Assembly: GCA_004431415.1 (NCBI GenBank)
Contig: QPMI01000631.1
Location: 1-64,000 of the forward strand
Direction: 5' to 3'
Source of the DNA: Cyanophora paradoxa CCMP329
Lineage: Eukaryota; Plantae; Glaucophyta
DNA: 64,000 nt
The notes under the pieces were generated by a model, which saw nothing but the letters and a program-made list of their open reading frames with translations, was not told where the DNA came from and searched no databases. Made by a program: the position numbers and the translations under genes. Positions within the stretch are counted from its first letter, which is position 1. Each line of letters opens with the position of its first letter. Shown here piece after piece: positions 1-38,800 of this stretch.

Positions 1-56
1 TGATGCGATATAAACGCGGTTTATAAAAATTATCTCTCATTCTAATAAAGATACAA

Positions 57-619
57 ATGCCTCCCCAAACGAAAAGATAGGGATCCCAGCTGGGGCTGTT
101 GGCTATTCAGGTGGTGGAAACAGTGGATCTATTAACACTGAACCAATGAAATTCAATGGTATGAATGAAGTCCCCTCAACCCCAAGAAGAACCCCTTAAT
201 GCTGCCTATGAGGAATCAGTCGATGACAAAGCCCCAGTTCAACTGCTGACAACTCAACATCTCACCAGAAGCCTCAAAATGAAGCTGTTGCTGAGGGTGC
301 CAGGCGAATTATTGGTGCTGCTGATGATAAAGGTTTAGGCTTGCAAGATCTTCACTGGCTCGCAAAGGTGAGGGTCTTAGTAAGGAATCGACAAGGTAAT
401 CAGTCTATGGCTGGTGAAGTCACATACAAGACTGCTCCCACTCAAAATATTCATCGAATTCCCAAGGCTCAATGGGATGAGATGACTGCTAAACTCAAAG
501 ATCTGGAAGCCAAATCAAGTGCCTTGGAGCAGTATGTTACTGAGAAGAAAGAGAGAGCCAAGCTAAAGGAGATGCTTCGAAAGGAAGTTTATAAATGGGA
601 TCACTGGTGTCCCAGATAA
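57..619 (+). CDS. Hypothetical element protein with coiled-coil C-terminus; frameshifted 5' half
   Basis: ATG at 57 behind the element promoter-like motif. Reading continues by frame-hopping (MPPK..IGIPAGAVGYSGG..QEEPLNAAYEES..GARRIIGAADDKGLG) into ORF 341-619 (WDEMTAKLKDLEAKSSALEQY). May continue to ~1089. Confidence 0.45.
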
Positions 620-1094
620 ACAGTTTATTGCTAAGAAGAGAACCAAATCGATGAGCAAGCAGTAGATTGAAATGAAACAAAGACCCAGAAAGGAACCATT
701 GAACCTGGTGCCACCAAAGCTGAGTAGAAAGGGAGTTGCCCCCAAAAATATAGAAAGACGAGTTTGGCTTTAATTATCTCTGTTTCTATTAGAGACATGG
801 ATATAATACGAAAGTTTTCGAGATGTTCAGTCTGCATGTGGTGAGCAATTGCCACAGTGGATCGCTGTGAGACAAGAGTGGAGTTTTGAGATGTCAGATA
901 ATGAGGATAATGCTTCTGAAAGGCAAGAGAGAGAAGGAGATCAACAGTTTCTGTGGAGTCAATGCAAGCAGACCCACAGAGTATACATATGAGCAACAGG
1001 AGTATCCAAGGAGAAGTTCTTTACCTGGTGAAACGTTTTCTCAGCAAATATTAATGGAGGATACAATTAAGTTTGATCGAGTTTACTAGTGATG

Positions 1095-1268
1095 ACTTTA
1101 ACTGAGGGTGCTATTAGACACATTCTAGCAAAGCAGAAACGATATAGAGAGGACCCAGCATATAGAGAGTATAAGAAACAACAAGCCCTGGCATCCTATT
1201 ATCGCAGAAAAGCCCAAAAAGAGGAGAGAGACCCAGAGGGAGACCGATTAAATATTATTGCCTACTGA
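1095..1268 (+). CDS. Small basic protein, possible AT-hook in an alternative frame
   Basis: Manual translation MTLTEGAIRHILAKQKRYREDPAYREYKKQQALASYYRRKAQKEE... A shifted frame at ~1229 reads RPRGRPIKYY (AT-hook core). Confidence 0.45.
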   Translation, partial: TLTEGAIRHILAKQKRYREDPAYREYKKQQALASYYRRKAQKEERDPEGDRLNIIAY

Positions 1269-1444
1269 TAGTAGCAATGGACCCACAGGTCTATAAGATA
1301 CTTGAGAAAAAGCGTCTCAGTATGCTACTGAGGCAGCTATTAAAGTTTACAGACAGGAACTGGTGTTCGCAACAAAAAATGACTTAAGAAAAAGTAGATA
1401 GGTTGTATTGAGGAAAAATTATTTCGTATCTACTATTAAAGAGA

Positions 1445-1836
1445 ATGCCGAATATCCGCAAGATACTCACAGATGATGAAAAAGCAGAAAGCAACTGAGA
1501 AAAGGAGCAAGATGCCAAAGAAAACGCGAAGCCTATCATAAAAAGAAGGAGGAACGATTATCCCAAGGAGCGCTACAGTTCACACACCAGAAGAACTCAA
1601 AAGATGCCCTCAGACACCAGAGGAAATACAGGGAAAAATGAAGAATATCGCGAACAGAAAAAGGCGAAAGCGCTGGAATACTACCACAAGAAAACGAACT
1701 ACCAAGACACCCAAAGAGCATAAACCGGTTGGAAGACCTCGGAAATATATCGAAGAATAAATTCTCGATCGAAACAAATTTTGTAGAAATCGATTTGATC
1801 GGAGGCAAAAAAATGACAGCTTTCTTCCCTTTTTAA
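1445..1836 (+). CDS. Small K/R/E-rich basic protein, frameshifted
   Basis: ATG 1445 behind the same promoter-like motif. Fragments MPNIRKILTDDEKAE, RHQRKYREK, EEYREQKKAKALEYYHKK resemble the upstream small ORF. Confidence 0.4.
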
Positions 1837-1973
1837 AAACTGTACCTATATAATCGAGACAGTATCCCGACCCAAAACTACTTAAGGACTTGGCAAATAA
1901 TAGGTATATATAAAGACAATTCTCCTTCCGAAATTATTTTCTTCGTAAAGGTAGAAGTCCCCCAAAATCGAAA

Positions 1974-4547
1974 ATGAACAAAATCGAGAAAATCGCCACC
2001 CTGTTGAAAATGCTACATTCCTTAGTACTCTCATTGGTGATCGCAACAAGGTCACCCATGTATGATTTCTTGAAGATGCCTTGAAGCCATTGATAATAGC
2101 AAGGTTAAGACCTGGGCTGAATGCATTCAGCCTGAACAAGTCACCAGAGTTTACCTGGACCTGGATAAATTCGCTGATTTGAAGGAGAACATTGCTTGAA
2201 AACTATGCTGAGCTGAAACTGTTGTAAGAGAGATGAGAGATAAGCTATGGAAGCGATCTGGACCATTCGATTAACGATATTGCTGTTGCAGTTCGCCATA
2301 GAAGGGTTTATTTGATCAAGGAGGATGTCACCAAGTTCAAGATCTCAGCCCACTTATCATTAAATCGCTTGCATGCAAACATGAAGATATCCCAAGCTTT
2401 TCAAAGCTATGGGATTGGTGAAAAATGAGGATTATGACAGTGGAGTTTACAGCTCCACACAGAACCTTATCTGCCTCAATTGCTGCAAAGGTGAGACTCT
2501 GGATGCTCAAAATAAATCAAAGAAAGATGTTGATAAAAACGTTTGCTTTAAGAAATTCGTTGACTGTGACAAAGTGTTAATGCGAAATGAGGACTTCTTT
2601 GTATCTTTCTTCTCAGCTTCTACTAAACTTGTGATGAATCGAATATTTCTGCATTCGCAAATTATAGCCTGAGCCAAAACCAGTTAAAAAGGAGCCAAAA
2701 AGTGATAAAGTGAAGACTGAGAAGGTAGAAGCTGAAAAAGACACTGAACCGAAAATCCTGTTACTTTCGAACTGCTACAAAGTGTTATAATGGGTCTCAA
2801 TGCTGAAAGAGCCAGCGAGTATAAGACTTGGATTGATGTTGGACTGGTCATCATCAATGTTGGGGAAGACAACAAATTTACCCTAAAATGCAGGCTGAAC
2901 TCTTCCACCAATTCTCAGAACAGAGTGACAAGTATGATTATGATGAATGCCAGGAAAAGTTTACACAGCTTCGCAGAAGCAAGAAGAAGGCTGAGCCTGG
3001 CAAAGTGTTGACCTTCAAATCCTTGGTTTATTGGTTGAGCAAAGATAACAATGAGCTTTTCAAGGAACTCTTCCCCAAAAAGTATGCATTCCTACCAGAG
3101 GACACAGATGAAATCGATTACAAGACTGCAAGTATCCTCCTTTGGCTGAACATTACAATGTGCATAAGAGGTATTTCAATGCTCGCATGCATCATGTTGA
3201 AAATGTTGGTTGTGTGATGCTCTGGGATGAACAACTACTTTGCTGGATGCCCAAAGACATTGGAAAACTGTCTACAAAGCATTTCCCCCACTTGATGCAT
3301 AAGGTGATTGTGAATGAGGGGACAGATAATGAGAAAGAGAAATGGGAGCAATCATTTAGGAAATGGATTGTGGATCCAACAGCCACAAGATCAACTTACA
3401 TGGATTTCCTCCACTCCTGCTACTCTCAGTGCAAAATGCAAGTCTGTATTTAATCTCTATCCAGGAATGAAGGTCGACCATCAGCAATTCGAAAATGCTC
3501 CAGAGGATGTAACTGCTGAGATGATTAAGCCTTTCCTTGATCACTTGTTCTTAATGTCTGGTGAGGATCAAAATACCTATGAATATCTGTTGAAATGGTT
3601 TGCCCACATGCTGCAAAGCCTGGGGAACTCAATGGAGTATCCTTAATCTTCATTGGTGAACAGGGAACTGGTAAGAATGTGTTGGTTTGATACTTTCCAA
3701 AAGAAGATACTTGGAGATGCCCTGAGTTATGCAACTGGTAAGCCAAAAGAGATCTGTTTGGTCGATTTGCCCACAATAGAGAGGATAAGATCTTGATTGT
3801 TTGAATGAAGCCTCAGGCAAGGACACATTCGAAAATAATGATATGCTTAAAGATCTCATTACTTCTGATAAGATTGTTATTGAACACAAAGGGATAGATT
3901 CATACACAAAAGCAACTTTGCCAGGATTATATCACCAGCAATAACAACATTCCAGTTAAAATTGAAGCTGGAGATAGGCGATTTGTGGTTGTTGAAGTTA
4001 GTAAGAAATTCGCAAAGGATAGGTCATACTTCCTTCCACTTGTAAAATGGCTTAATGATCACTGCAATATTCGAAACATTGCCCACTATTTGAGAACCAA
4101 AGTTGAATGTGAGGATGTGAACTGGATTGCTGATAGACCCCTTACAAATAAATACTATTTAGCCAGCAGGTGTGCGCTCCAATCATCCTTATGTTCACTA
4201 AGTGGCTTGTGGATCGAGGCTTAATTTCCGAGAATAAATGCAAGTCTGGTAGCCTTGTGGAAACCTGGAAATGGTTCCAGGAGTTCATTACCAGCAATAA
4301 ATATAAAAACGATTATAATAGTCGCAGATATTATACAGAAATGCGAAGTGTTACATATATCCAAGTGAAAACTACAAATGGTAAACAATACTATCATTTC
4401 CTATTCCCACAAGTATTTGAGGAATTCAGAAAGATGAAGCTTGTAGATGATGAGACCATTGAGGAAGAAGCTAATCCAAGGATGAAACAAGAACTACCTG
4501 CTGCTGATCCTGATGCATCAGATTATGACTCTGATGTTGAAGTTTAG
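1974..4547 (+). CDS. D5-like primase-helicase: AEP primase + PriCT-2 + SF3 helicase (multiple frameshifts in this sequence)
   Basis: AEP motifs RVYLDLDK (~2146-2170), KISAH (~2339-2353), DYDSGVYS (~2430). PriCT-2 EYKTWIDVGLVI..LFHQFSEQSDKYDYDECQEKF..LTFKSLVYW (2790-3040). Walker A GEQGTGKN (3655), Walker B ILIV-NEA (~3790), motif C ITSNNNIPV (3931), GDRRFVV (3970). Split over at least 8 ORF pieces. Confidence 0.9.
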
Positions 4548-4555
4548 GTTTACTC

Positions 4556-4738
4556 AAAAGTGGACTCACAGTTGACTCAAATTTATCATAAAAGACCCAA
4601 ACAGTCTTTTATTTATGGTTTATTTATCGATTAGGTTGACTAAGTGGGGGGAGTTGACTCATTTTTTCACAGATTCTAAAAGAGGACTCTGCCCTAAAAA
4701 GAAATAAAAAGTGCCTCAACTCCACCACTAAGTCAACC
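4556..4738. promoter_or_regulatory. Origin-like iteron module, copy 1 (inverted 25-bp arms around an AT-rich spacer)
   Basis: GGTTGACTAAGTGGGGGGAGTTGAC (4634-4658) and its imperfect inverse (4714-4738) lie immediately downstream of the helicase stop. The left arm is the exact reverse complement of 10926-10950. Function is inferred. Confidence 0.6.
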
Positions 4739-4789
4739 AAAAAATGATTTAAGAGATAGAAAAATATATTTATATGTAACTAGTAAGAA

Positions 4790-5194
4790 ATGGCTGGAAC
4801 AGATCATGATTCTGGATCGATCTATATGATTGAGAGTCAGGAAATGAACAAAGTCTACATAGGAAGAACCTCACAGCCACTTCAAAAAAGATGGAGACAA
4901 CACAAATCAGGTCAAATGCCATCTACAGCAGACCTATGCAAGGCTTCTGATGTGAAGTTCTCAGTCCTGTATTCAAGTAAGAAGGGTGGGCATGAAGACC
5001 TAATGAACAGAGAAGCATATTACATGTATCTCTTTGAACCTTGGATAGTCAATTTACAAAAACCGAAATCCCGATTTAGGATTAATAGGTTTTTGCGATT
5101 CCATTCAGAGGAAGCCAGTGATCCATTAAAACATTTTAAATTGCGTTTAGAACATCCTAAAATAAAATATCCCCTTAGAATAGGAACAAGTTAG
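4790..5194 (+). CDS. GIY-YIG endonuclease
   Basis: GSIYMI-x8-VYIGRT, conserved Arg (KRWRQH), Glu (NREAYY) and Asn (IVNL). Confidence 0.9.
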   Translation: MAGTDHDSGSIYMIESQEMNKVYIGRTSQPLQKRWRQHKSGQMPSTADLCKASDVKFSVLYSSKKGGHEDLMNREAYYMYLFEPWIVNLQKPKSRFRINRFLRFHSEEASDPLKHFKLRLEHPKIKYPLRIGTS

Positions 5195-5199
5195 GAATA

Positions 5200-8100
5200 A
5201 TGCCCCGAATTACCAACAAACTCATAAGGGAGAAGAAATGGGAACTCATGGGATTGCTGGGAACACTTTATGCAGCCATGAAATTACAGAGGCTGAATAT
5301 GACCGGGAAATAGATTTAATTGCAAAGGGCAGACCCACTTTAAGCAGATTAACCAGAAAAGCAAATAACCTATATGATAAAATTGAAACCTTGGATGAAT
5401 TGGATAGGCTTAGGCAAATAGAACCAGATGCAGAAGATGGAACAGCCATGAATGAATTATATCGCTGGCTCACTTACAGAGCCAGAAGGGAAGTTGTTGT
5501 AGATGTGATTGAATTCCTGGATAGAATTGCTACATCCTTCCAAATCGATTAAAGCAGGGTTTAGATCAATTCAGGGCAATCAAGGTTCGCTTGTCTTTTA
5601 TCTGCAAGTTCGTTAAAGTGAGCAATCCACAGGTTTGGATATCGAAATACATTTACAGTGATTACTTTGTATTAACCAGGTCGAGAAATATTCGAACTGA
5701 GCTGAATAAAGCAGCCCAAATGTGTCAGGAGCAGATGAATGTGGTTGATAGCTATCGCTTAGAAAGAATTGAAATACTCAGAGTGGCTATTATGAGTTAT
5801 GCTCCAACTGGTGGATGCTTTCTACAAACCCCAGAGTGGATTGCTAGGAAGAGAGCCACAGTAAATATTCGAAATATTGATGATTCCTGCTTCGAAAATG
5901 CAATTTTGGCATATATTCACAGAAAAGCGATAAACTCCCATAAGAGGAATGAGCTTTCACAATATCGCAAATGGAAATACTCAGCAATCGCTTATAATCC
6001 GCTGGCTCTCAATTTCGATAACATCCATTCCCTGTTGCCTGTGATGCTGATATTATTGATAAATTCGAGGCTCAAAATGCAGGCATTAGCATTAATATAT
6101 TTGGAATCGATGGAGAGGTTATTTATCCCTGCATCAATCAAGTAACCCAGGCAGAAAGCATAAGGTTAATCTCATGCTGATATTTGATGATGAAGGGAAT
6201 GGTCACTATATTACAATCATGTCCCTTTCAAGGCTATTGAAAGTAAACCATGAAACATACAATGATCAGAAGTTACACTACTGTGACACATGCTTATCTC
6301 GATTCAGGTCTGAGGCTAAACTCACTGCTCATGTGGACTCAAACAGATGCATTGATTGGAGACTCTCAAAGGGAATCACACCAAAACCTGAGACCACCAT
6401 AGAGTTTGGACTGAAAAACCTCAGGAAAACTGTTTGGCTTCCTGTTGTGGTTTACTGCAAGATTGAACATAGAAGCATCCCCATTGATGCATCGAAATCC
6501 AAGAGGGAAGTCTCAGCAGTCAACATTAGAATAGTCACTGGGGCAGATGTTCAGGAGTTTCGATTTGAGGGTCAGGATCCAATGGGAGGTCTGTTTGAAT
6601 GCTTGGAGTCCAAAGCAAGAGAGCTAATCGATTTCCTGTTCACCAATATTCCCATGAATGAACTCACAGATGAGCAAAAGGCTATTTACAGAGCTACCAA
6701 ACACTGTTACCTTTGCAGTGAGAGGTTCACCAAGGAAAACTTCAAATGCAGGGATCATGATCACCACACAGGTAATTACATTGCACCTGCATGCAGAAAC
6801 TGCAATCTCCATAGGAGAATCTCAAAGCAAACAAAGTAGCAGTGGTTGTTGACCAAATGGATGACTGTGGGACATTCATTTTCAGAAAAATAGCAGGCAT
6901 GGGTGATAAAAAGCGAATCGAAATCCTTTCGAAAAACTTTGATCAATACCTTTCATTGCAATGGGGTCTTTACAAGTTCATTGATGCAAGTAATTTTATG
7001 GACTTTGGGGCTGCTGATGTAGATGAGTTAATGAGCAAATTCCAGGCTTTCAGAAGGCTTTCACACTCAGTATATGGATTGGACCCAGTTCATTATGTAT
7101 CTGCACCTGGGTTATCTTGGGATGCTATGCTTAGGACCACCAAGGCAAAAATAGAGCTTATAAGTGATGTAGAGCAATACGAATTTGTTGAGAGGGGAAT
7201 CAGGGGTGGCTTTGCAACAATGCCTTGTAGGTATGCTGAGGCTGATGGTGAGAACTCCCATATAATGCTGTTTGATGCTAACAACTTGTATGGCTACTGT
7301 TTGAGTCAGCCAATTCCAGTTGGTGATTTTAGATGGGAGACCGAATTCAACCCACAAGATAACAGATCCAGTTTCCTAGAAGTTGATCTGGATTACCCAA
7401 TTAGGCTATATCTAGACCACAGTGATTTCCCCCTAATTATTAACAAGAAAATAGTAGAATATGCAGAATTATCACAATATCAAAAGAGCCTATTAGATCT
7501 CTCAGGAGAAGAGCTTGATAAAACCCCAAAGCTAACTGCAACCTTTGGTTCTGTGACAAACTATGTGATTTCTGAGCCTCTCCTACAGTATCTGTTGGAC
7601 AAAGGGGTGAAATTAAAGAAAATTCACAGGGTCCTATCATTTACTGTGGCTCCTGTAATGAAACCCTATATTGAACTGAACACTGAGATGAGAAGGAAAG
7701 CAGTGAATAAATTCGAGGCTGATTTCTATAAGCTCATGAATAATTCAATCTATGGAAAATGCATTGAATCTTGCAGAGGTAGATCTGTGGTTAAGATTGC
7801 AAACAGTGAGAAACTGTTTATGAAATATGCAGCCTCCCCATTGGTGAAATCAACCAGCCCCATAAACGAAAAAGCAGTTGCCTTTGAGTTTTACATAAAG
7901 CATGTGAAGCTAGATAAGCCAGTTGCTATTGGGGCTTATGTTCTGGATGCAGCCAAACTGCATAACTACAAGTTCTTCTATGATACTGTAAGGTCCCAAT
8001 GGACAAAAGCAAAGTTACTATTCCATGATACTGACTCCTTTTGTCTATATATCGAATCTAAGACCCTACAAAAAGATATAGAGAATATATCCTATGCATT

Positions 8101-8440
8101 AGACCTTGGAGGTGATTCCAGAATGACCCCAGGTAAATACAAAAATGAAATGCCTGGCTCTGCTATATTGGAGTATGTGGGTCTGAGAGCTAAAGTTTAC
8201 AGTTTCAGAACTGCTGAGATTGAGAGGAGTAAGCTCTCTGGGACTTCAACTGAGGAACTCCAATTTAATGATTTTAAACAGTGTTTATTTGCAGGTATCA
8301 GCAAGACTGTGACTGCAAAGCAGAAAAGAAGGGCAGATCACACAATAATAGACACTGTGAGTAGAAGGGTTGCCCTAAACTGCTTTGATGCAAAGAGATA
8401 CATCTTACCAGATGGTATTAATTCTGTTCCTTTTAATTAA
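5200..8440 (+). CDS. polB: Protein-primed family B DNA polymerase (Polinton type) with C2H2 finger, EndoVII-like Zn insert and degenerate exonuclease; frameshifts near 5255, 5552, 6040 and 6835
   Basis: N-terminal GGCFLQTPEWIARKRATVNIRNIDDSCF, C2H2 CDTC..H, CYLC..RDHDHHTG..ACRNCN, YGLDPVHYVSAPGLSWDAML, GIRGG. Motif A DANNLYG, motif B KLMNNSIYGK, motif C HDTDS, GLRAKVYS. Long A-B and B-C spacers are typical of pPolB. Start at 5200 is inferred; the core 5591-8440 is secure. Confidence 0.93.
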
Positions 8441-8443
8441 GAG

Positions 8444-9828
8444 ATGCCAGCAACTGGAAGAATAGTTAGGAGAACCACTGAGCAACTACAAGGTAACCTA
8501 CTGCCTATCACAGTTCCCAAGGAGGAAAAGGGAGAATCTCGAATTGTAAAAAAGTCAGAGATGAAAGAGCTTGTCCCAGTAGAGATCCCAGTTGCTATTG
8601 CAGTGAAAGAAACCAGCAAGATTGCCAAGAGATTCTATGATGTGAGAACTGGTTACAAAGGGCTTCAAGCTATGAGGGCTGAGTTACCTGATGAATCCTA
8701 TAAGCAGTTGCAAGAGTTCTATAAAAACAAGAAGTTGTTCAGATCAATGCACCTGCTATATCTAGGAAGAGAGATCCCATGGTCCCAATTAGGCAACCCC
8801 TTGATACCTATGTGATTGATTTGCTCTTTTTCCCAGCTTATAAGAAACAAAACAATGGCTATGATACCTTTATGACTGCAATGGAATCTACACTGAGAAC
8901 TGGGTATATCATACCTATAAGGGATAAATCAGCTCTCACTACATTAGCTGCATTTAAACAGCTTGAAATGAGAGTGGCAAGACCCATAGTAAAAGTTCAA
9001 TCAGATGCTGGGAGTGAATTCCAAAATCGAATATTCCAGGAGTATTTATCTAGTAAATTCATAGAACACCAAGTGAGTGGAACTGCAGACCACAGAAGCC
9101 AAGGTCGAATTGAAGCCTTTAACAAGCAGATTAAGAGACTGATCACAAACTACTGCATAGCTAATAACACAGCTAGATTCTTTGATGTGTTAGGTGATAT
9201 TGAGTATAATTACAATAATACAGTCCACTCAGCTACTAAGATGAAACCAGGCGAAACTACAGAGGAGCATTATAGGTATATAGTGGGATTAGAAGATGAA
9301 AGATTCAAGAAATCAATAGCTTACCTTGATACCATGCAGCCTGGCATGTTTGTTAGAGTGAAAGTTGAGAAGAACCCCTTTGCTAAACAGGGTAACAATT
9401 GGTCTAGGATGGTTTACACTGTTGATAGTAGGGAAGGCTTTAAGTTTAAGCTAAGGAGTCCCACTGGTGAGATCATAGAAAACAGGTTTGCTTTCCATGA
9501 GCTGTTGCCTGTGAATGCAGTTGAATATCTAGAAACCCCTACAGTGGATGCCTTGGAGCAAGCTAAAGAGGAAGCCAGGGCTGATGCTGCTATAAGGAGA
9601 GAAGGCATAGAAGCTGCTAATGAAGTCCCAGATAAGCCTTTGATAGAGGCTAGAAAGGAGAAGGCTGGGAAAGTTAACAGGGAACTCAAAAAGCTCACCA
9701 TAGCAGGGACACAGAAACTTTCAGAAGTGAATAGCCAGAGATGGTATAATGACTTTCAGACTACTAAGGAGTCATATACAGCTCCTAAACCTCAAAGAAC
9801 ACTAAGAGAAAGGACCAAAACTAGCTAG
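8444..9828 (+). CDS. int: Retroviral-like (rve, DDE) integrase of Polinton type
   Basis: Catalytic triad YVIDL / QSDAGSEF / GRIEAFNK, YNNTVHSATKMKP, and an SH3-like C-terminal domain. One base missing in the A-run at ~8723-8727 would join ORF 8444-8815 to ORF 8779-9828 (FYKKQEVVQINAPA). No chromodomain. Confidence 0.93.
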
Positions 9829-10199
9829 TTTGCTAGGCAAAAACTCGTTTTTTCCAAATATATGTATGACTGATATACATATATGCATATGATATACACA
9901 TAGTCTTGTAGATCTTATCAAGCGCTTCACAGCGATATGCAGAACGTTGCGTTTTGATGATCTGGTGATGAGATATAACAGTTTGAAGATGCAAAAGTCA
10001 CTTGCCATAGTAGACTTGGTGAAAGACTAGCCCAGGAGTCGACTCGACGGTAAGCCGTTTTTGGCTCAGAGAATAGAGCGCTTGATTTCTGACTCCAACC
10101 TACGCGGTTCAAATCCGCTCGGGAACCTTTACTTCGTTCGCCGTGAAACTTGAAAAGTAAAAAAAAACGCGGTTTTTTCTAGATTAATGCTGTACCCGT

Positions 10200-10720
10200 C
10201 TAGAAAATCAATATTCACGTTTGCTACGATATCTCAACACCAACTTATCAAATCGATGCGCTTAAAACGTCATAAAATCGAGCATTTCAAGGCGGTCACA
10301 GCGCTTATGAGCCATATCGGAATTTCACTAACTGTAACTCCAAATCGCGATGAAACCGATTTTGAATTTTGATTTTAAATTCGATTAAAATCCATTAAAC
10401 GTGAGTTTTTAATATAGATCACTAGGAAGTTATCAAATCGATGCACTGACGGTCGAATATAATCCCATATATCATACATAACAATAACTTGCAATCACAT
10501 ATACGAATCGCAATGTGTATAGATCGCTATTACGATTAAAGCGAGTTTTGAAAATTCAAAACTAATTCGATTAAATTCGATTATAACGAAAGAGTTAAAG
10601 ATCTACATCAAATACTTATCAACTCAATCACCTGATAACATCGAATAATCAACCCAAATCTACTTTAGAGATAATCGTGATTACATATGTGAAATCATCA
10701 ATCTAACACTGCATTTAGTA
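10200..10720. repeat. About three degenerate ~185-bp tandem repeats in the element terminus
   Basis: TTATCAA(A/C)TC(G/A)AT anchors at 10245, 10430 and 10616. TTTTGAA..AATTCGATTAAA anchors at ~10360 and ~10545. Confidence 0.65.
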
Positions 10721-11480
10721 AGCATCTCCCCTTGATTCCCCCTATTATATTATATTTATATTTAAGTGGACTCAAGGTTGACTCATATTAATCGTAAAAG
10801 TAGTAAAAGTATATGGATTTTGTTACGAATTCAATGCAAGGGTTGACTAAGTGGGTTGAGTTGACTCAAATTTCACAGGAAATATTTGGGACCTAAAGTT
10901 TTCTAAAAAGGATTTGAAAAAATGTGTCAACTCCCCCCACTTAGTCAACCCTGACCATAAACAGTAAGGATTTGAGCTAACAAGTATCACAAAGTGAACA
11001 TTTTGAGTCCACTTAGAAGATCCACCTAACAATTTAGAGTCAAATTTACTTGGGAATTCGATTTGTATGAAAAAGTGAGTCCACCCTGACCATATTCAAT
11101 AAGCATTCCTCTTAATCCCCTTGTTTATATTTACATTGATTAATATTTAATACTAAGTGGACTCATGGTTGATTCATATTAATCGTAAAAGGAGTAAATG
11201 TATATAAAAATGTGACCATTTCAATGCTAAGGTTGACTAAGTGGGTTGAGTTGACTCAAATTTCAGAGGAAATTTTGAGATCCAAAGAATATTCTATAAA
11301 AGATTTTGAAAAATGTGTCAACTCCCCCACTTAGTCAACCCTGACCATATACAGTAAGCATTAGAACTTAAATGTATCACAAAGTGAACATTATGAGTCC
11401 ACTTAGAAGATCCACTTTTGAAATATAAGTTGATTTTGCTTGAAATTTCAAAGTTGATCTAAAAGTGAGTCCACCCTGAT
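10717..11480. repeat. Two ~390-bp direct repeats, each containing the origin-like iteron module (copies 2 and 3)
   Basis: TAAGTGGACTCA at 10763/11154 and AAGTGAGTCCACCCTGA at 11073/11463. Inner inverted arms at 10841-10865/10926-10950 and 11231-11255/~11317-11340. Outer inverted pair at 10763-10775/11003-11015. Confidence 0.9.
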
Positions 11481-11494
11481 TGATTATGGTAACA

Positions 11495-11866
11495 AAGTTG
11501 ACTAAGTTGACTAAGTTGAGTCATCTTAAGAAATTCAAGAAGACTAAGAGTTCAAAATGTTTATGAAAAGTGAGTCAACTTAGACCACTTATGGTAACAA
11601 AGTTAAATATTTAATTGATTTAATCGGAAAAGAACATGATTTAATCGAATTTATTGATATAATTCCGATTAGATTCATTTAGGATTCAATTAAGATTAAT
11701 CGAAGTTATAGATATAATTCCGATTAACTACAATTAAGATACAATATCGATTAATCGAGTTTATCGATATAACATCGATTAAATTAATTGAAAATGCATT
11801 TAAAAATATGAAAATTCATGTGAAAATTCAAATAAATTAATCGATTTTATTGATATAACATCGAAT
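11495..11866. repeat. Subterminal 9-bp iterons (AAGTTGACT x3) and four ~32-bp imperfect palindromes
   Basis: AAGTTGACT AAGTTGACT AAGTTGAGT at 11495. TTAATCGA-n-TTAT-n-GATATAA-nnn-CGATTA units at ~11641, 11696, 11751 and 11837. Confidence 0.85.
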
Positions 11867-11941
11867 CACACATATGAATATTCATATTTTAATCCTGAGG
11901 CGGAACGCCGAGGGATTAAAATATGAATATTCATATGTGTG
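11867..11941. repeat. Perfect terminal hairpin (29-bp arms, 17-nt loop) at the element/host junction
   Basis: 11867-11895 is the exact reverse complement of 11913-11941. The loop contains GGCG-GAA-CGCC, and each arm holds the 16-bp palindrome ATATGAATATTCATAT. Confidence 0.95.
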
Positions 11942-12952
11942 CGGCGGCGGCCGCAGCCGCCGGGCAGCGGAACCGCACTGTGACTCTCCTGGACGGCCTC
12001 ATGACGGCGCTCCGCTCGGCGGAAGAGGTTCTGGCCGCCGCCGCCGCGGCCGCGGTGCCGCCGCCCGCGGCGGCCAACGCGTCAGCATCTGCGCTCCGCG
12101 CAATCGCGGCGGGCCGCATGACCCCTGGCCTCTTCTTCCTCCTTGCCAACTCGTGCGAAATCGAACCCCTTAGGCCTTCAATAATTAATTTCTGCCTCCC
12201 TCCTACATCCTTCGGCTCCTCTGAAGCGCCCCGGCCCAGGATCATGGCGCTTCCCGGCGGCAACTCGGCCGTGGCTGCCAGTTTCACCGCCAGCGCAGTC
12301 CGCACTCTGGCTCTGCCCTTGTCCCCGCGCGCCTCAGATTGCAAGCTGGGCCGCCTGCAGATTCGCCGGCTGGACACCACACGCCGAACCTCCCTTATCC
12401 TCTTCTGCGCCGCCGCCGGCCTCGCCGTCTTCCTCATGCATGCCCGCCCGCCCCGCGGGGCGGCGCTCGGGCCGGCGCCCGCTCGCCCCGCCCTCACCGG
12501 GCGCCCAGATTTGGGGTGATGCTGCCCGTGCTCTGGTACGTGAGGCGGACCCGCGACCGCCTTCTCCGAGTTTTCCTGCAGGCTCGCGCGGCCCGTCCCC
12601 GCCCCTGCCGCCTCGAGTTGAAGACCCGGCTCAGATCCCGCGGAGCACGGCCCGCGAAATTCGAGCGGAAATCCTCGCCCCCCTTTTTCCCAAGCGCGAG
12701 CCGGGCCCCGAGCTCGAGGAGGCGGAACCAGATGCCGCAGGCAGAGAGGCGCAGGCGCAGGCGGGCGGTGTCAATGCGCACGCTAACGGGTCGGCCCCAC
12801 CCAACCTGCGATCGGACGAAGCGGCGGCGTCGTCATCGTCGGAGCGGGAGGGCGGGTCCGAGGGGGACGGGTCGGAGGAGGGGGAGGCCCCCGCGCTCGG
12901 GTCCGAGGCGCCGAGCGGCGATCGCGAGGACGAGGTGCGCCGCGCCGTCTGA
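11942..12952 (+). pseudogene. 3' part of a host gene apparently interrupted by the element
   Basis: An Ala-rich open frame runs right up to the junction with no host start codon. Host-type introns (e.g. GTGCGA ~12152..CCAG ~12239), a hydrophobic segment SLILFCAAAGLAVFL, and an acidic tail ending at TGA 12950-12952. Confidence 0.5.
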
Positions 12953-13186
12953 AAATTTCGGGATTGCGATGGAATTTCGAAGCTCGCCGATAAAGCCTGC
13001 TCGCTGCTCGCCTCTGCACGGCTTCCGCACCTCACTCCCCTGTGCGCCCCACACAGGCCGAGGAGGCGGAGGCGGCAATGGTCGACTACGCCCGCCTCGA
13101 GGCGCGCCTTGCTTTTATGAAAAATGATCAAGTCTTATAAGACATCATAAGAGTTTTGCGCCTCGCTCGGCTTATAGTTACGCTTA

Positions 13187-35548: not shown

Positions 35549-35752
35549 GAGGCTGTGTCTTTCCTTTCTTATTGTCGATTTTGGCTCTTTGTCTTATCTT
35601 TCTTCGTGCTCTTGTCTTAGTTATTTTGCTTTTTTGTCTCTATGCCCCCTGGGCAGCCCCCGCAGTGCTGGTGTCTAGAGACTGTGGCCGGTAATTCACC
35701 AAAAAAAAAAAATGCAGAGGCTGTGGCCGGTAATTCACCAAAAAAAAAAAAA
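35549..35752 (+). mobile_element. Two nested short copies of the same poly(A)-tailed retroelement 3' end
   Basis: CTGTGGCCGGTAATTCACC(A)n occurs twice. Outer TSD GACATGCA (35541-35548 / 35753-35760); inner duplication TGCAGAGGCTGTG (35545-35557 / 35713-35725). Confidence 0.85.
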
Positions 35753-35894
35753 GACATGCATGCACACCACCGGGGGGGGGGGGGGGGGGCTTCATCACGA
35801 GCGGGGTACTGAACTCTCGTTGTCTGGCGACAGTGCCGCGCGGCACGTATACGTATGCCGCGACTGTAGCGTGCAGCACGTGAGCGAGATATCG

Positions 35895-38800
35895 ATGACT
35901 ATGCCGGTGGAGCTCGAAGCGCTCCTTTCGCCGTGCCCGATTGGCGAGGACGGCGCGCTCGCGGAGTCCGATCCCGCGCATCCTTTCGACGTGCGCGTCG
36001 TGGCGGCCGTGTGCGAAGGCGATCCGGGCGAGCCCGCCACGCCTGCGCACCGCGCGGTGCTCGCCGGCCGCAGCGCCTACTTCCGGGCCATGCTGGGCGG
36101 CGGCTGGCGCGAGTCATCGGGCGCCGGGGATGTCCGCGTGTGCGGCTGGAGCCCCGCCGCCCTCCGCGCCGTCGTCCGCTGGGCGTACGCGGGCGACCCG
36201 GGCGCGCTCCCCGCCGGGGCCGACGAGCTGGCCGAACTCTGCCGCGCCGAGGACTTCTTCGGCCTGCCGGGCTTCACCGAGGCGCTGGAGGCGCGGGCGC
36301 TCCGCTCCACGCCGCCCGCCGCCGCGTGCCGCCTCTGGCGCACCGCGGAGGACGCGGGGCACGAGGCGGTGGCGGGCCTGGCGCGCCGCGCCCTCCTGCG
36401 CGCCGCCGACGAGGCGCCGGGCTGCGCCGCGCTCGGCGCGCTCCCCGCCCGCCTCGCCGCCTCCGTCCTCTCCGACCCCTCCGCCCGCCTCCCCTCCGAG
36501 GCCGCCGCCGCCCGCCTCGCCGCCCGCTGGCGCGTCCTCTAATTTCCCGTACGCTTCGTCGCCCTTTTATCTGACTCGGTACCCCTCCGCAGGTGCCTCG
36601 CGGCGCCCCCCGACGTTCGCGCGGCAGGGGCCGCCCTCCTCTGGCCCGCTGTTCGCGTACCCCTCCTCTCCCCCGCGGACCTCGCCGGTACCCCCTCCCC
36701 TCCCGCGAGCACCCCGCGGCGCCCCTTGCAGCTGCGTCCAACTCATGTACCCGCCGTCTTTCAGACTGCGACATCTCGAGGGGTCTACCCCCCGCCACCC
36801 TCGCCTCCGCCCTTTCCGCCCTCCGCCGGGCCACGAACGCGGTCGCCGCGGATTCCGTAACACCCTTCGCTTCCAACCCCCGCCTCGGCCCCTCCTCCGA
36901 GGTCCGAGGGCGACCCATGCGCCGGGGTACCACAAGCTCGCCTCACTTTCGGCGCAGTCGTACAGCCTCAGGGGCCTCCGGCACGTCCCGGGCCCCGCCC
37001 TCGCGTCCCTCTTCGAATCCGGGCGGGACCGCTTGCCTTCGCTGACCGAGGTGGGTTCGAGCGAGCCCGCCCGACCGCCCCCGCGTCGCCCGCTCACGTA
37101 TCCCCCCCCCCCCCCCCCGCCTCCAGCTGGATCTGTCCGGGTACCCCTCGTCCCTCCCGCAGTCTATCGGCCCTAGCTCGAGACCCGCCTTCCTCAGCTG
37201 CGCGCTGCTGGACGGGGAATCGCTGGTCGCGATCTGCGGCGCCCTCGCCCGCCGGGCCGCTCCGCTCCGCCGCCTCGACCTCTCCGGGTGCCCCCAGGTG
37301 CGCGTACCCCTCCCCAATCGCGTACCCCCCAGCCCGGCTCCTTCGACCTTCCAACGCAGCTCCACGCGGCGGCCATCGGGCACGCGCTCCTCAGCCTCTC
37401 CTCCCTCCAGGCTCGCCCGCCCGCCCGCCCGCCCGCCCGCCCGCCTGATTCGATCCGCGCTCGCCTGATTTGATCTGATTCGGCCGCTTCGCCCCGCCCC
37501 GCAGGACCTCGCGATAGACGACTGCCCCATCGCCGCGTGCGCTCATCTGATCTGATCCGTCTGATCTGAGCTGAACTGATCTGATCTAATCGCAGGCCCC
37601 TCCTCTCCCCCTACGAGCGTCGCCGCGGGTCCCTCCTCCGCCTCTCCGCCCGCCGCGCCGACGTACCCCCCAAGGCGGCCGCCAAGCGCCCCCTGGTCCG
37701 CTCCGCTGGGTACCGCGATTTCTCCCCCTCCCCCGGCCTTCGACTGGGGGTACCGCGAAGGTGGCGGGCCTCCTCTCGGCCGCTGGTACCCGTCTGGCCG
37801 CGCTCGACCTCCGGGAGTGGCGTACCCCCCTCCTGGAGGAAGACGCGGCGGCCCTTGCGGAGCGCCTTCGATCGGGTACCCTCCGCGAGCTCGACCTCTC
37901 CGGGGTACCCTGTACCCCTCTTCCCCTTTCACCTTCCCCCTCCCCGCCTCTGACCGGGGGTACAGGCCTGGCATGAGCAGACGGAGGCGGATCCAGGGGG
38001 GGATGCGGCCGGGGGGGCGGCGGCGGCCGCTGCCCCTTTATGTGCGGGCCTGCGGGGCGCCCCCTCTCTGACCACCCTCCGCCTCGGCCACTGCCCCTTC
38101 GTCTCCGATGACCTGGCGCGCCCCGTACCCCCCCGCTTCTTCCCCCCCTCCCCGCACGCCCTCCGGCGCTCACGCGCCCCTCCGTCCGCAGGTCCGCGCG
38201 GCGCTGCGCGCATCCCCCCTGCGCGAGCTGTCCCTGCGGGGTACGCCGATCTCCGACGCGGCGTTCGCGGACGCACCCCCGTCCTCGCTCTCGGGCCTCG
38301 AGGCGCTCGACCTCCGCGAGACGGGCATCGAGGGGTGCATCCTTTCCCTGTACCCCCCTTCGCCCGCGTCGCTTTTCCGAGTACCCCCCGCCGCCGCGCA
38401 GGACCACGTGGCTCCCCGGGTGCCGCTCCCTTCGGAGCCTGAACGTGCGCGGCTGCAGAGGCTTCAGGCCGCCCGGTCCCTCCTGGCCAGGAGACGCCAG
38501 CCCCCTCCTCGAGGAGCTCAAGGCCGGCTGGGGCATCTCCGACGTGCACCTGTGCGTCCGAAAGAACGCCGTACCCCCCCCCCCGCTCGCTCGTCCATCT
38601 CGTGATTCAAATCGGCGCCCGGCGGGCAGGGCGAGCGCGCCGCCGCTGCGGGCGCTCTCCCTGGGGCTGGGTACGAGCGCGACGGACTCGGGACTCGTAC
38701 CCCTCGTCCGCCGCTCGGGGCGCCGCCTCCGCGCCCTCCGCCTGTGCCCTTCCCCCCCCCCCCCCCCACCACCCCCCCACACCCCACACCCCTTTCCCCC

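Follow-up and report, generated by a model that had tools for sequence, protein, structure and literature searches.

CpG depletion that spares TCGA in a putative Maverick-like element family of Cyanophora paradoxa

The decay of CpG dinucleotides in methylated repeats and the preference of DNA methyltransferases (DNMTs) for certain flanking bases are both already known. In vertebrate genomes, methylation drives CpG depletion of transposons and of DNA viruses that are latent or integrated, and in basidiomycete and rust fungi a CpG hypermutation resembling repeat-induced point mutation (RIP) acts on repeats and converts TCG to TTG; CpG depletion has been mentioned for a rust genome. Here, a window of 64,000 nucleotides from the glaucophyte alga Cyanophora paradoxa CCMP329 (assembly GCA_004431415.1, contig QPMI01000631.1, positions 1 to 64,000) was analyzed. 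GC content is approximately 40% up to position 11.9 kb of the window and approximately 66% in the adjoining DNA, and judged by its sequence the AT-rich stretch appears to be a many-copy Maverick/Polinton-like element inside a GC-rich algal genome. It is strongly depleted of CpG, and the CpGs that survive are concentrated where a T precedes the C, an A follows the G, or both.

According to the accessible parts of PMC12344493, C. paradoxa has DNMT1 and DNMT3, a CG methylation level of 32% and repeats that are methylated at CG. Enzymatic methyl sequencing (EM-seq) and nanopore methylomes of this alga are reported as generated (PMC12344493, PMC12695648). Flanking bases change the in vitro activity of DNMT1 almost 100-fold in the available sections of PMC7381644, and sheet 6a of its supplement indicates that the mouse enzyme disfavours C at position -2 and G at +2 (CTCG and CGAG). 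In vertebrate cells, as far as the available text of PMC13082072 extends, CTCGAG is the worst-maintained hexamer and TACGTA stays methylated, with flanks that act independently and additively; TACGTA and TGCGCA are both high in maintenance methylation in the accessible parts of two reports (PMC13082072, PMC7381644). Adintovirus-like contigs with a family-B DNA polymerase (PolB) and an integrase (PMC8502044) and polinton-like viruses (PMC12220804) have been described from Cyanophora paradoxa data, and the available text of the 2019 genome paper of this alga does not mention Mavericks.

The element resembles the vertebrate examples in its low CpG, raised TpG and CpA and normal GpC, and in being a repeated, probably methylated family in which a CpG-rich island is spared like CpG islands. 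It differs from them in that whether a CpG is lost depends almost entirely on its flanks, TCGA and VCGB (V, any base but T; B, any base but A) differing 16- to 36-fold, and in that the surrounding host genome is without CpG depletion. Fungal RIP-like systems likewise cause repeat-directed and context-specific CpG loss, but TCG is their target whereas TCG/CGA is the survivor here. The Maverick/adintovirus-like sequences from Cyanophora share the protein-primed PolB, the retroviral-type integrase, the AT-richness and the integrated state, and their CpG content and context are not treated in the accessible parts of the two reports (PMC8502044, PMC12220804). Literature searches at the level of result listings, which are no proof that a finding is unpublished, returned no earlier report of a TCGA-sparing CpG depletion, nor of a near-binary footprint of this kind in an algal Maverick-like family.

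CpG depletion and its flanking context

The original prediction had claimed only 12 CG dinucleotides for the polymerase and integrase region 6842-9830, all within CGAA or its complement TTCG. An exact recount agrees with this number: there are exactly 12 CGs (CpG observed/expected ratio 0.10), with 11 of 12 in CGAA and one in TTCGAG, while all 12 lie in CGA and seven in TCGA. With the bases that flank G and C outside CpG in the same region as the reference, the CGA context (12/12, binomial p=8e-6) and the CGAA context (11/12, p=8e-10) are both strongly overrepresented. Dinucleotide-preserving shuffles (5000) gave a mean of 2.2 and a maximum of 8 CGAA/TTCG compared with the observed 12, and across all 16 CGNN/complement patterns, a comparison that allows for post-hoc choice of the pattern, the highest count was likewise no more than 8. 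When synonymous codons were shuffled 2000 times (6842-8440 and 8818-9828), a mean of 49.7 and a minimum of 33 CGs were obtained versus the 11 observed; the mean share of CGA was 0.46 versus 11/11, and in none of the 2000 shuffles were all CGs in CGA. The bias thus persists under codon and composition control, since the observation was reached in 0/5000 dinucleotide and 0/2000 codon shuffles.

When the count was extended to 1-9830, TCG/CGA rather than CGAA emerged as the spared context, with TCGA at its core. This part of the element contains 120 CGs (observed/expected 0.31), of which 72 have T at -1, 80 have A at +1, 46 have both (TCGA) and 14 have neither, so that TCG or CGA accounts for 106/120 (p=6e-16); the share is 94/108 in 1-6841, where the prediction had placed nearly all CGs in CGA/TCG. 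Each context was then normalized by its own deamination products as CG/(TG+CA). The resulting value in 1-9830 was 0.34 for TCGA, 0.165 for GCGA/TCGC and 0.06 for both ACGA/TCGT and CCGA/TCGG, while ACGT, ACGC/GCGT, CCGG and CCGC/GCGG stayed at or below 0.03 and ACGG/CCGT was 0/174; GCGC stood at 0.25 (3/12, too few for judgement). The upstream part (1-4545) retained TCGA at 24/60, CGs with one favourable flank at 44/306 and those with neither at 11/289 (Fisher p=5e-10), and in 4546-9830 the corresponding ratios were 22/75 (0.29), 16/334 (0.048) and 3/365 (0.008; Fisher p=2e-13). Expressed as the ratio of TCGA to VCGB retention, the difference amounts to 15.9 for 1-9830 and 35.7 for 4546-9830. 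The two single flanks are symmetric between strands (VCGA 34/408, TCGB 26/232, p=0.33).

The outer flanks also deviate, as the surviving CpGs carry W (A or T) at -2 in 80% and at +2 in 83% of cases, and WTCGAW makes up 30/46 TCGA sites versus 51/135 TTGA and TCAA controls. The A at +2 in CGAA is thus a local small-sample feature; over the whole element a CpG is spared by a T at -1, an A at +1 or both, and the outer positions -2 and +2 favour W. TCGA reaches 1.31 of the number expected from plain base composition. The dinucleotide odds ratio of CG is 0.31 in 1-9830 and 0.20 in 4546-9830, with 1.21-1.23 for CA/TG and 1.08-1.09 for GC (1.21 and 1.08 in 1-9830), and this combination of CpG deficit, TpG/CpA excess and normal GpC is the classical profile of methylation decay.

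The codon context was analyzed at several levels. CGs occur in all three codon phases (16/11/13). At codon junctions, the C-ending share of NNC versus NNT codons was 11/105 before GA, 2/121 before GC, GG or GT and 282/578 before non-G (GA versus GB, p=0.0075). Resolved by the preceding base, the synonymous NNY junctions gave C-ending shares of 7/40 for TCGA, 4/65 for VCGA, 2/33 for TCGB and 0/88 for VCGB, compared with baselines before non-G of 82/159 (NTY) and 200/419 (NVY). Among NCG codons, TCG was found at 7/72 (all seven before A), ACG at 0/90, GCG at 1/110 and CCG at 3/62, and arginine is encoded by 97 AGR versus 16 CGN codons, 10 of the latter being CGA. As the bias is independent of codon phase and is present at synonymous junctions and in the non-coding tail, it is not translational; it acts at the DNA level, is directed at CpG and is context-specific, and it is no effect of codons or composition. 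The element is A/T-rich with abundant GAA and GAT codons, and 6/8 CGs in the PolB part of 6842-9830 fall on NNC|GAR junctions (in the frame of 6815-8440), which might have suggested that the bias is an artefact, arising from base composition, from amino-acid content or from codon usage. Against the shuffles, the junction test and the rule-abiding non-coding tail this explanation was rejected, and its remaining probability is negligible.

The tail (10461-11941) follows the same order as the coding part, with CG/(TG+CA) ratios of 12/51 for TCGA, 14/60 for one flank and 2/62 for neither (p=0.0045). Host DNA (11942-64000; 66% GC) shows no context bias, with values of 1.30, 1.13 and 1.31 for the same three classes, and its CpG observed/expected ratio of 1.10 bears out the claim that it is full of other CG contexts. 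The bias is also absent from a short variable module of the element itself, a CpG-rich island at 9920-10460 (540 bp, observed/expected 1.66) with 36 CpGs in all contexts and ratios of 7/12, 9/27 and 20/19. Of all 181 CGs in 1-11850, 34 have neither T at -1 nor A at +1, and 20 of these 34 rule-breakers are located at 9923-10450, where the prediction had seen the other contexts return (9920-10500). Contigs of four DNA sequencing runs were aligned to 1-13000, and their summed depth, which is not a copy number, is 2.7-4.9k at 9983-10416 versus 9-25k to the left. The island may be promoter-like and protected, or it may have been inserted later; a CpG-rich stretch inside the element would be the expected result of local protection from methylation. 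A T-arm-like string near 10100 and the motif A9-CGCGG-T6 at 10159-10178 were noticed in it. A transfer RNA or short interspersed nuclear element (SINE) nature of the island was discarded, as ARAGORN predicted no gene and Rfam (E<=0.1) did not recognize the island; over the sequence searched, Rfam at this threshold gave nothing beyond sub-threshold miRNA-like matches to the terminal palindrome and a single weak match to an sRNA.

Two minor deviations were observed besides. A smaller cluster of non-TCGA CpGs at 1457-1726 accounts for 5/34 rule-breakers and coincides with short open reading frames (ORFs) on the minus strand, the CpG observed/expected ratio being 1.2 in 1501-2000. In host DNA, TCGA (306) exceeds ACGT (151), with TG/CA counterparts of 235 and 196 (1.2-fold); this mild excess has the same direction as in the element, and codon usage could explain it.

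IMG/VR and metagenomes supplied 84 related loci for comparison, with PolB sequences 30-39% identical. Their CpG observed/expected ratios extend from 0.06 to more than 1.5 (median 0.86), and the median TCGA-to-VCGB retention ratio is 1.2. The TCGA-sparing bias is not general to these elements because 82/84 relatives are without it. Apart from L049, which has only 2 CGs, the loci nearest to the window are L024 (ratio 9.3; 13 CGs) and L016 (5.8; 14 CGs), and these two may represent a second, weaker instance in another host. Both come from one metagenome and have CpG observed/expected ratios of 0.14-0.16. They were not accepted as a second example, the CGs being too few (13 and 14).

Other copies of the element were evaluated from the same four DNA runs. 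Each run yielded 1409-3995 matching contigs with identities from above 99% down to below 90%, and the element is thus a many-copy, diverged family. Transitions between copies are balanced (for example C>T 61 and G>A 50 versus A>G 61 and T>C 56 in run X1). Among the 40 best-supported of 566 copy differences four touch a CpG, three of them in the island and one at position 244, and the CpG-poor state therefore predates the copies. A copy-to-copy excess of CG>TG/CA has little power as a test, as few CpGs remain in the coding part. The view that the sequence had reached a long-term equilibrium fits these data, only 1/40 best-supported differences touching a CpG outside the island.

Explanations for the CpG pattern

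The interpretation we favour, to which about an even chance is assigned, is that the pattern is the long-term footprint of flank-dependent, methylation-linked CpG decay caused by CG methylation of the host. Each CpG cytosine would be methylated and subsequently deaminated to TpG/CpA unless the preceding base of the same strand is a T. Protection would then extend to both strands in TCGA, to one strand in TCGB and VCGA, and to neither in VCGB, and the flank dependence would lie in methylation or in the repair of T:G mismatches. A single T-before-C rule applied to both strands thereby yields the order TCGA > one flank > none. Because the process is strand-symmetric, specific for CpG, blind to the reading frame and spares the island, it fits methylation and deamination, given a strong flank dependence. 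The primase-like and PolB modules are biased alike, which argues against the error spectrum of a polymerase. Accordingly, the part of the prediction that proposed the footprint of a host methylation or defence system stands in so far as a context-dependent, CpG-directed process at the DNA level is observed, while the context it spares is TCG/CGA and not CGAA. This interpretation presupposes methylation of the element family, a flank dependence of either methylation or T:G repair, and a loss brought about by mutation rather than selection. Directly observed are the depletion itself and the context rule, together with its symmetry between strands, its indifference to reading frame and coding status and its absence from host DNA and distant relatives.

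The known hierarchy of DNMT1-UHRF1 (PMC13082072, PMC7381644, as available in part), to which the hypomethylation of solo-WCGW sites belongs, provides the closest parallel for such a flank dependence. Its worst-maintained sites share the TCGA core and ACGT is well maintained, and its independent, additive flanks match the graded retention TCGA > one > none. It differs in that C at -2 and G at +2 are unfavourable in vertebrates, whereas W is favoured at both positions here, so that the agreement with the bottom hexamer CTCGAG in vivo is confined to the T at -1 and the A at +1. Furthermore, the vertebrate effect concerns the methylation level, and no comparable evolutionary footprint is reported in the accessible parts of these papers.

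Several observations weigh against methylation-linked decay. TCGA itself is approximately 3-fold depleted at synonymous junctions (7/40 versus 82/159, p=8e-5) and is thus less affected but not immune. Among the survivors, C occupies -2 in 10% and G occupies +2 in 12% of cases, versus 14-24% and 20-21% in the TG/CA background, and the in vitro profile of mouse DNMT1 was rejected as an explanation for its mismatch at these two positions. ATCGAA, TTCGAA and ATCGAT, which survive most often, do not occur in the examined bins below 1 of sheet 6a, and by elimination they would be preferred substrates of mouse DNMT1, as far as this part of the supplement goes. No flank-resolved methylation is given in the main text and one supplement of PMC12344493. 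The 52 kb of host DNA have a CpG observed/expected ratio of 1.10 (0.68-1.42 in 1-kb windows) without context bias, so that methylation alone evidently would not strip CpG from the host genome, judged from this stretch. The same element holds an island that keeps CpG in every context, and the depletion of VCGB is very deep. Finally, Fryxell and Moon (2005) reportedly found that 5-methylcytosine (5mC) deaminates faster in AT-rich flanks, which is the opposite direction.

Selection would produce the pattern if active copies that shed CpGs escaped host methylation or another CpG-reading form of silencing, TCGA being unread and therefore tolerated. The extreme depletion of VCGB (3/365 in 4546-9830 and 0/88 at synonymous junctions), the absence of CpG depletion from host DNA of the same genome and the coverage of family parts by contigs of runs guessed to be RNA are in favour of this idea. 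A 540-bp island with 36 CpGs in all contexts is hard to reconcile with evasion, however, the non-coding tail follows the same rule, and TpG/CpA is raised as deamination predicts; even though sequence alone is unable to part selection from mutation, we consider selection rather unlikely. A cytosine deaminase acting independently of methylation, or a RIP-like system directed at repeats or foreign DNA, might hit VCG and avoid TC. The per-strand protection by a preceding T would be expected of a deaminase that discriminates at -1, the family is highly repeated, and the depletion exceeds what in our judgement would be expected from spontaneous 5mC decay. Yet transitions between copies are balanced, the island keeps its CpGs in the many copies in which it is found, the CpG specificity (GpC rho 1.08) points to an enzyme that reads CpG, and the RIP-like systems of basidiomycetes target TCG and therefore have the opposite polarity. 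C>T changes that wreck ORFs, as known from RIP, were not encountered between copies, where transitions are balanced and ORFs open except for two single-base breaks in A-runs. A deaminase of this kind is improbable.

The contrast in GC content (40% in the element, 66% in the host) and the unbiased, undepleted host DNA would also be in line with an imported signature, in which the bias arose in an earlier host or a free-virus phase and persists after a recent invasion, and the weaker hints in the two relatives of one sample (L024, 9.3 on 13 CGs; L016, 5.8 on 14 CGs) point the same way. This scenario must contend with thousands of contigs of 99+% to less than 90% identity, which indicate long residence and amplification in this genome, with a bias common to two different modules, with the 82/84 relatives that lack it and with the absence of an exact 26-mer match from IMG/VR, and only a small probability was accorded to it. 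Functional retention, finally, assumes that WTCGAW sites bound by, for example, a terminal or packaging protein were kept while ordinary CpG decay cleared the rest. ATCGAW is indeed built into the 55-nt subterminal repeats at 11641-11891, and WTCGAW is enriched among TCGA sites as given above. The 46 TCGA sites are nonetheless dispersed over coding DNA in all phases, the intermediate retention of contexts with one flank is explained by a per-strand chemical rule and not by a binding site, and between two subfamilies one CGAA site was lost and another gained. This makes retention for binding very unlikely.

Known flank preferences of DNMTs, as derived from enzymology and vertebrate methylomes, are graded, while the difference seen here is 16- to 36-fold across a transposon or virus family of an early-branching alga. 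Should methylation be the cause, the specificity of an ancient DNMT1/DNMT3 system could be deduced from sequence alone, and the element would show integrated viruses equilibrating with host silencing and would predict which CpGs escape methylation. A more far-reaching version, which is proposed tentatively and held to be doubtful, is that CpG methylation in glaucophytes (through DNMT1/DNMT3 or coupled repair) is near-binary, with T-preceded CpGs largely invisible, TCGA 'methylation-proof' and the resident Maverick-like viruses at equilibrium. If such a tetranucleotide rule were true, no stronger natural flank specificity would be known for a eukaryotic CpG methylation system, and this one could be read from a genome sequence. 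If methylation is not the cause, the pattern would point to a mutator directed at CpG, or to a selective filter, that has not been described before. The methylomes already reported for Cyanophora paradoxa (PMC12344493, PMC12695648) make these predictions testable.

Organization of the element and its copies

The core of the element is formed by a protein-primed PolB with an Endonuclease-VII-like module (6096-8440, plus strand; Pfam DNA_pol_B_2 E=2e-14 and Endonuclease_7 E=2.8e-5) and a retroviral-type (rve) integrase (8441-9828, plus strand). The Pfam rve match of the latter (E=1.8e-4) is under the gathering cut-off, and a phmmer search of PDB matched the catalytic core of the prototype foamy virus (PFV) integrase (E=1.3e-8) at the domain level, not the residue level. 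A search with PolB returned 3006 homologues, and a Maverick-type 'DNA-directed DNA polymerase' of Mytilus is among the best of them, which reach 34-39% identity. IMG/VR contained neither integrase relatives nor an exact match to the PolB 26-mer. A GIY-YIG nuclease ORF (4787-5194, plus strand; Pfam E=1.4e-10) precedes PolB. Further upstream, a module of approximately 40% GC (1-4545, plus strand), CpG-depleted and TCGA-sparing as well, contains fragmented primase-like ORFs at 2837-3643, with matches to Pfam PriCT_2 (2837-3214, E=1.7e-5) and a PHROG DNA primase (3314-3643, E=8e-5). The other ORFs of 1-6145 and 8441-8815 had no Pfam/PHROG match except for the primase-like ones. No Pfam/PHROG match to a capsid, packaging ATPase or maturation protease was obtained among the 34 ORFs of 1-9828, and the element may extend past the left edge of the window.

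Positions 4546-4669 (repeat families D3, D4 and I1) hold one copy of a subterminal repeat motif with which the right-hand tail is filled, and they may mark the boundary between two modules. Positions 4634-4669 match 10915-10950 in inverted orientation (97%, blastn), and given this inverted recurrence of the tail motif the stretch may consist of two modules. The primase-like fragments (PriCT-2 and phage-type DNA primase) are located beside the PolB/integrase element, and terminal repeat motifs are common to 4546-4669 and 10752-11530; this suggests two neighbouring replication modules, either nested or adjacent related elements. The tail itself comprises a 390-bp tandem repeat (10763-11479, Tandem Repeats Finder), the 55-nt repeats and a terminal near-perfect palindrome of 75 nt (11867-11941; inverted repeat I2) with 36-nt arms, a 3-nt loop and 92% complementarity, which could represent a terminus of hairpin type or what is left of a head-to-head arrangement. 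Only two CpGs of the tail break the rule, and both lie in the loop. The right end of the element was fixed at 11940/11941 with its palindrome, as the contigs of other copies continue there into three different sequences and the summed contig depth falls from thousands in the element to 30-190 beyond 12153; the left end was not located, so that no target-site duplication can be read.

The claim that the ORFs stay open holds only in part for this copy, in which two breaks in A-runs shift the frame of PolB near 6833 and of the integrase near 8723. According to tblastn with five relatives, PolB runs from 6174 to approximately 6830 in frame 3 and then to 8434 in frame 2. Contigs of other copies carry one extra A behind 6832 and behind 8722, which by frame arithmetic restores a single frame for each gene. 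The breaks (6833-6835 and 8723-8727) could be private to this copy and due to slippage or could be homopolymer errors of a long-read assembly.

Four further runs were included whose RNA type was only guessed, and parts of the element left uncovered there are no evidence. The deepest contig (depth 44-53) in three of the runs guessed to be RNA joins 8259 to 10238 with 'TAT' at the joint. This integrase-less derivative is approximately 3.5% diverged from the copy in the window, and in those runs the integrase region has a depth of 0-5; a non-autonomous subfamily that lacks the integrase may account for most of the family's transcription. The derivative has 4/5 window CGs of 7138-8259; it is without the one at 8053 (ATCGAA) and gains one at 7821 (TACGAA), and all six CG sites compared between the window and the derivative in this interval are CGAA.

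In the host DNA, an ORF with a BTB domain (35679-36539) is 100% identical to the EukProt protein tig00021441_g21546.t1, and it was the only match among the host ORFs besides a weak one to PDEase. Cyanophora paradoxa genes carry identifiers of this type, tig000.../tig0002... (10.1101/674762). A Chlamydomonas punuivirus as the identity of the sequence was dropped, as this endogenous giant virus has 60.6% GC in the accessible part of its description and the host protein points to Cyanophora. Run X17, which carries another species label, yielded short contigs (167-324 nt, depth 2-3) on 4725-9502 that are identical or nearly so to the element, and these could derive from a close relative of the host, from shared elements or from cross-contamination.

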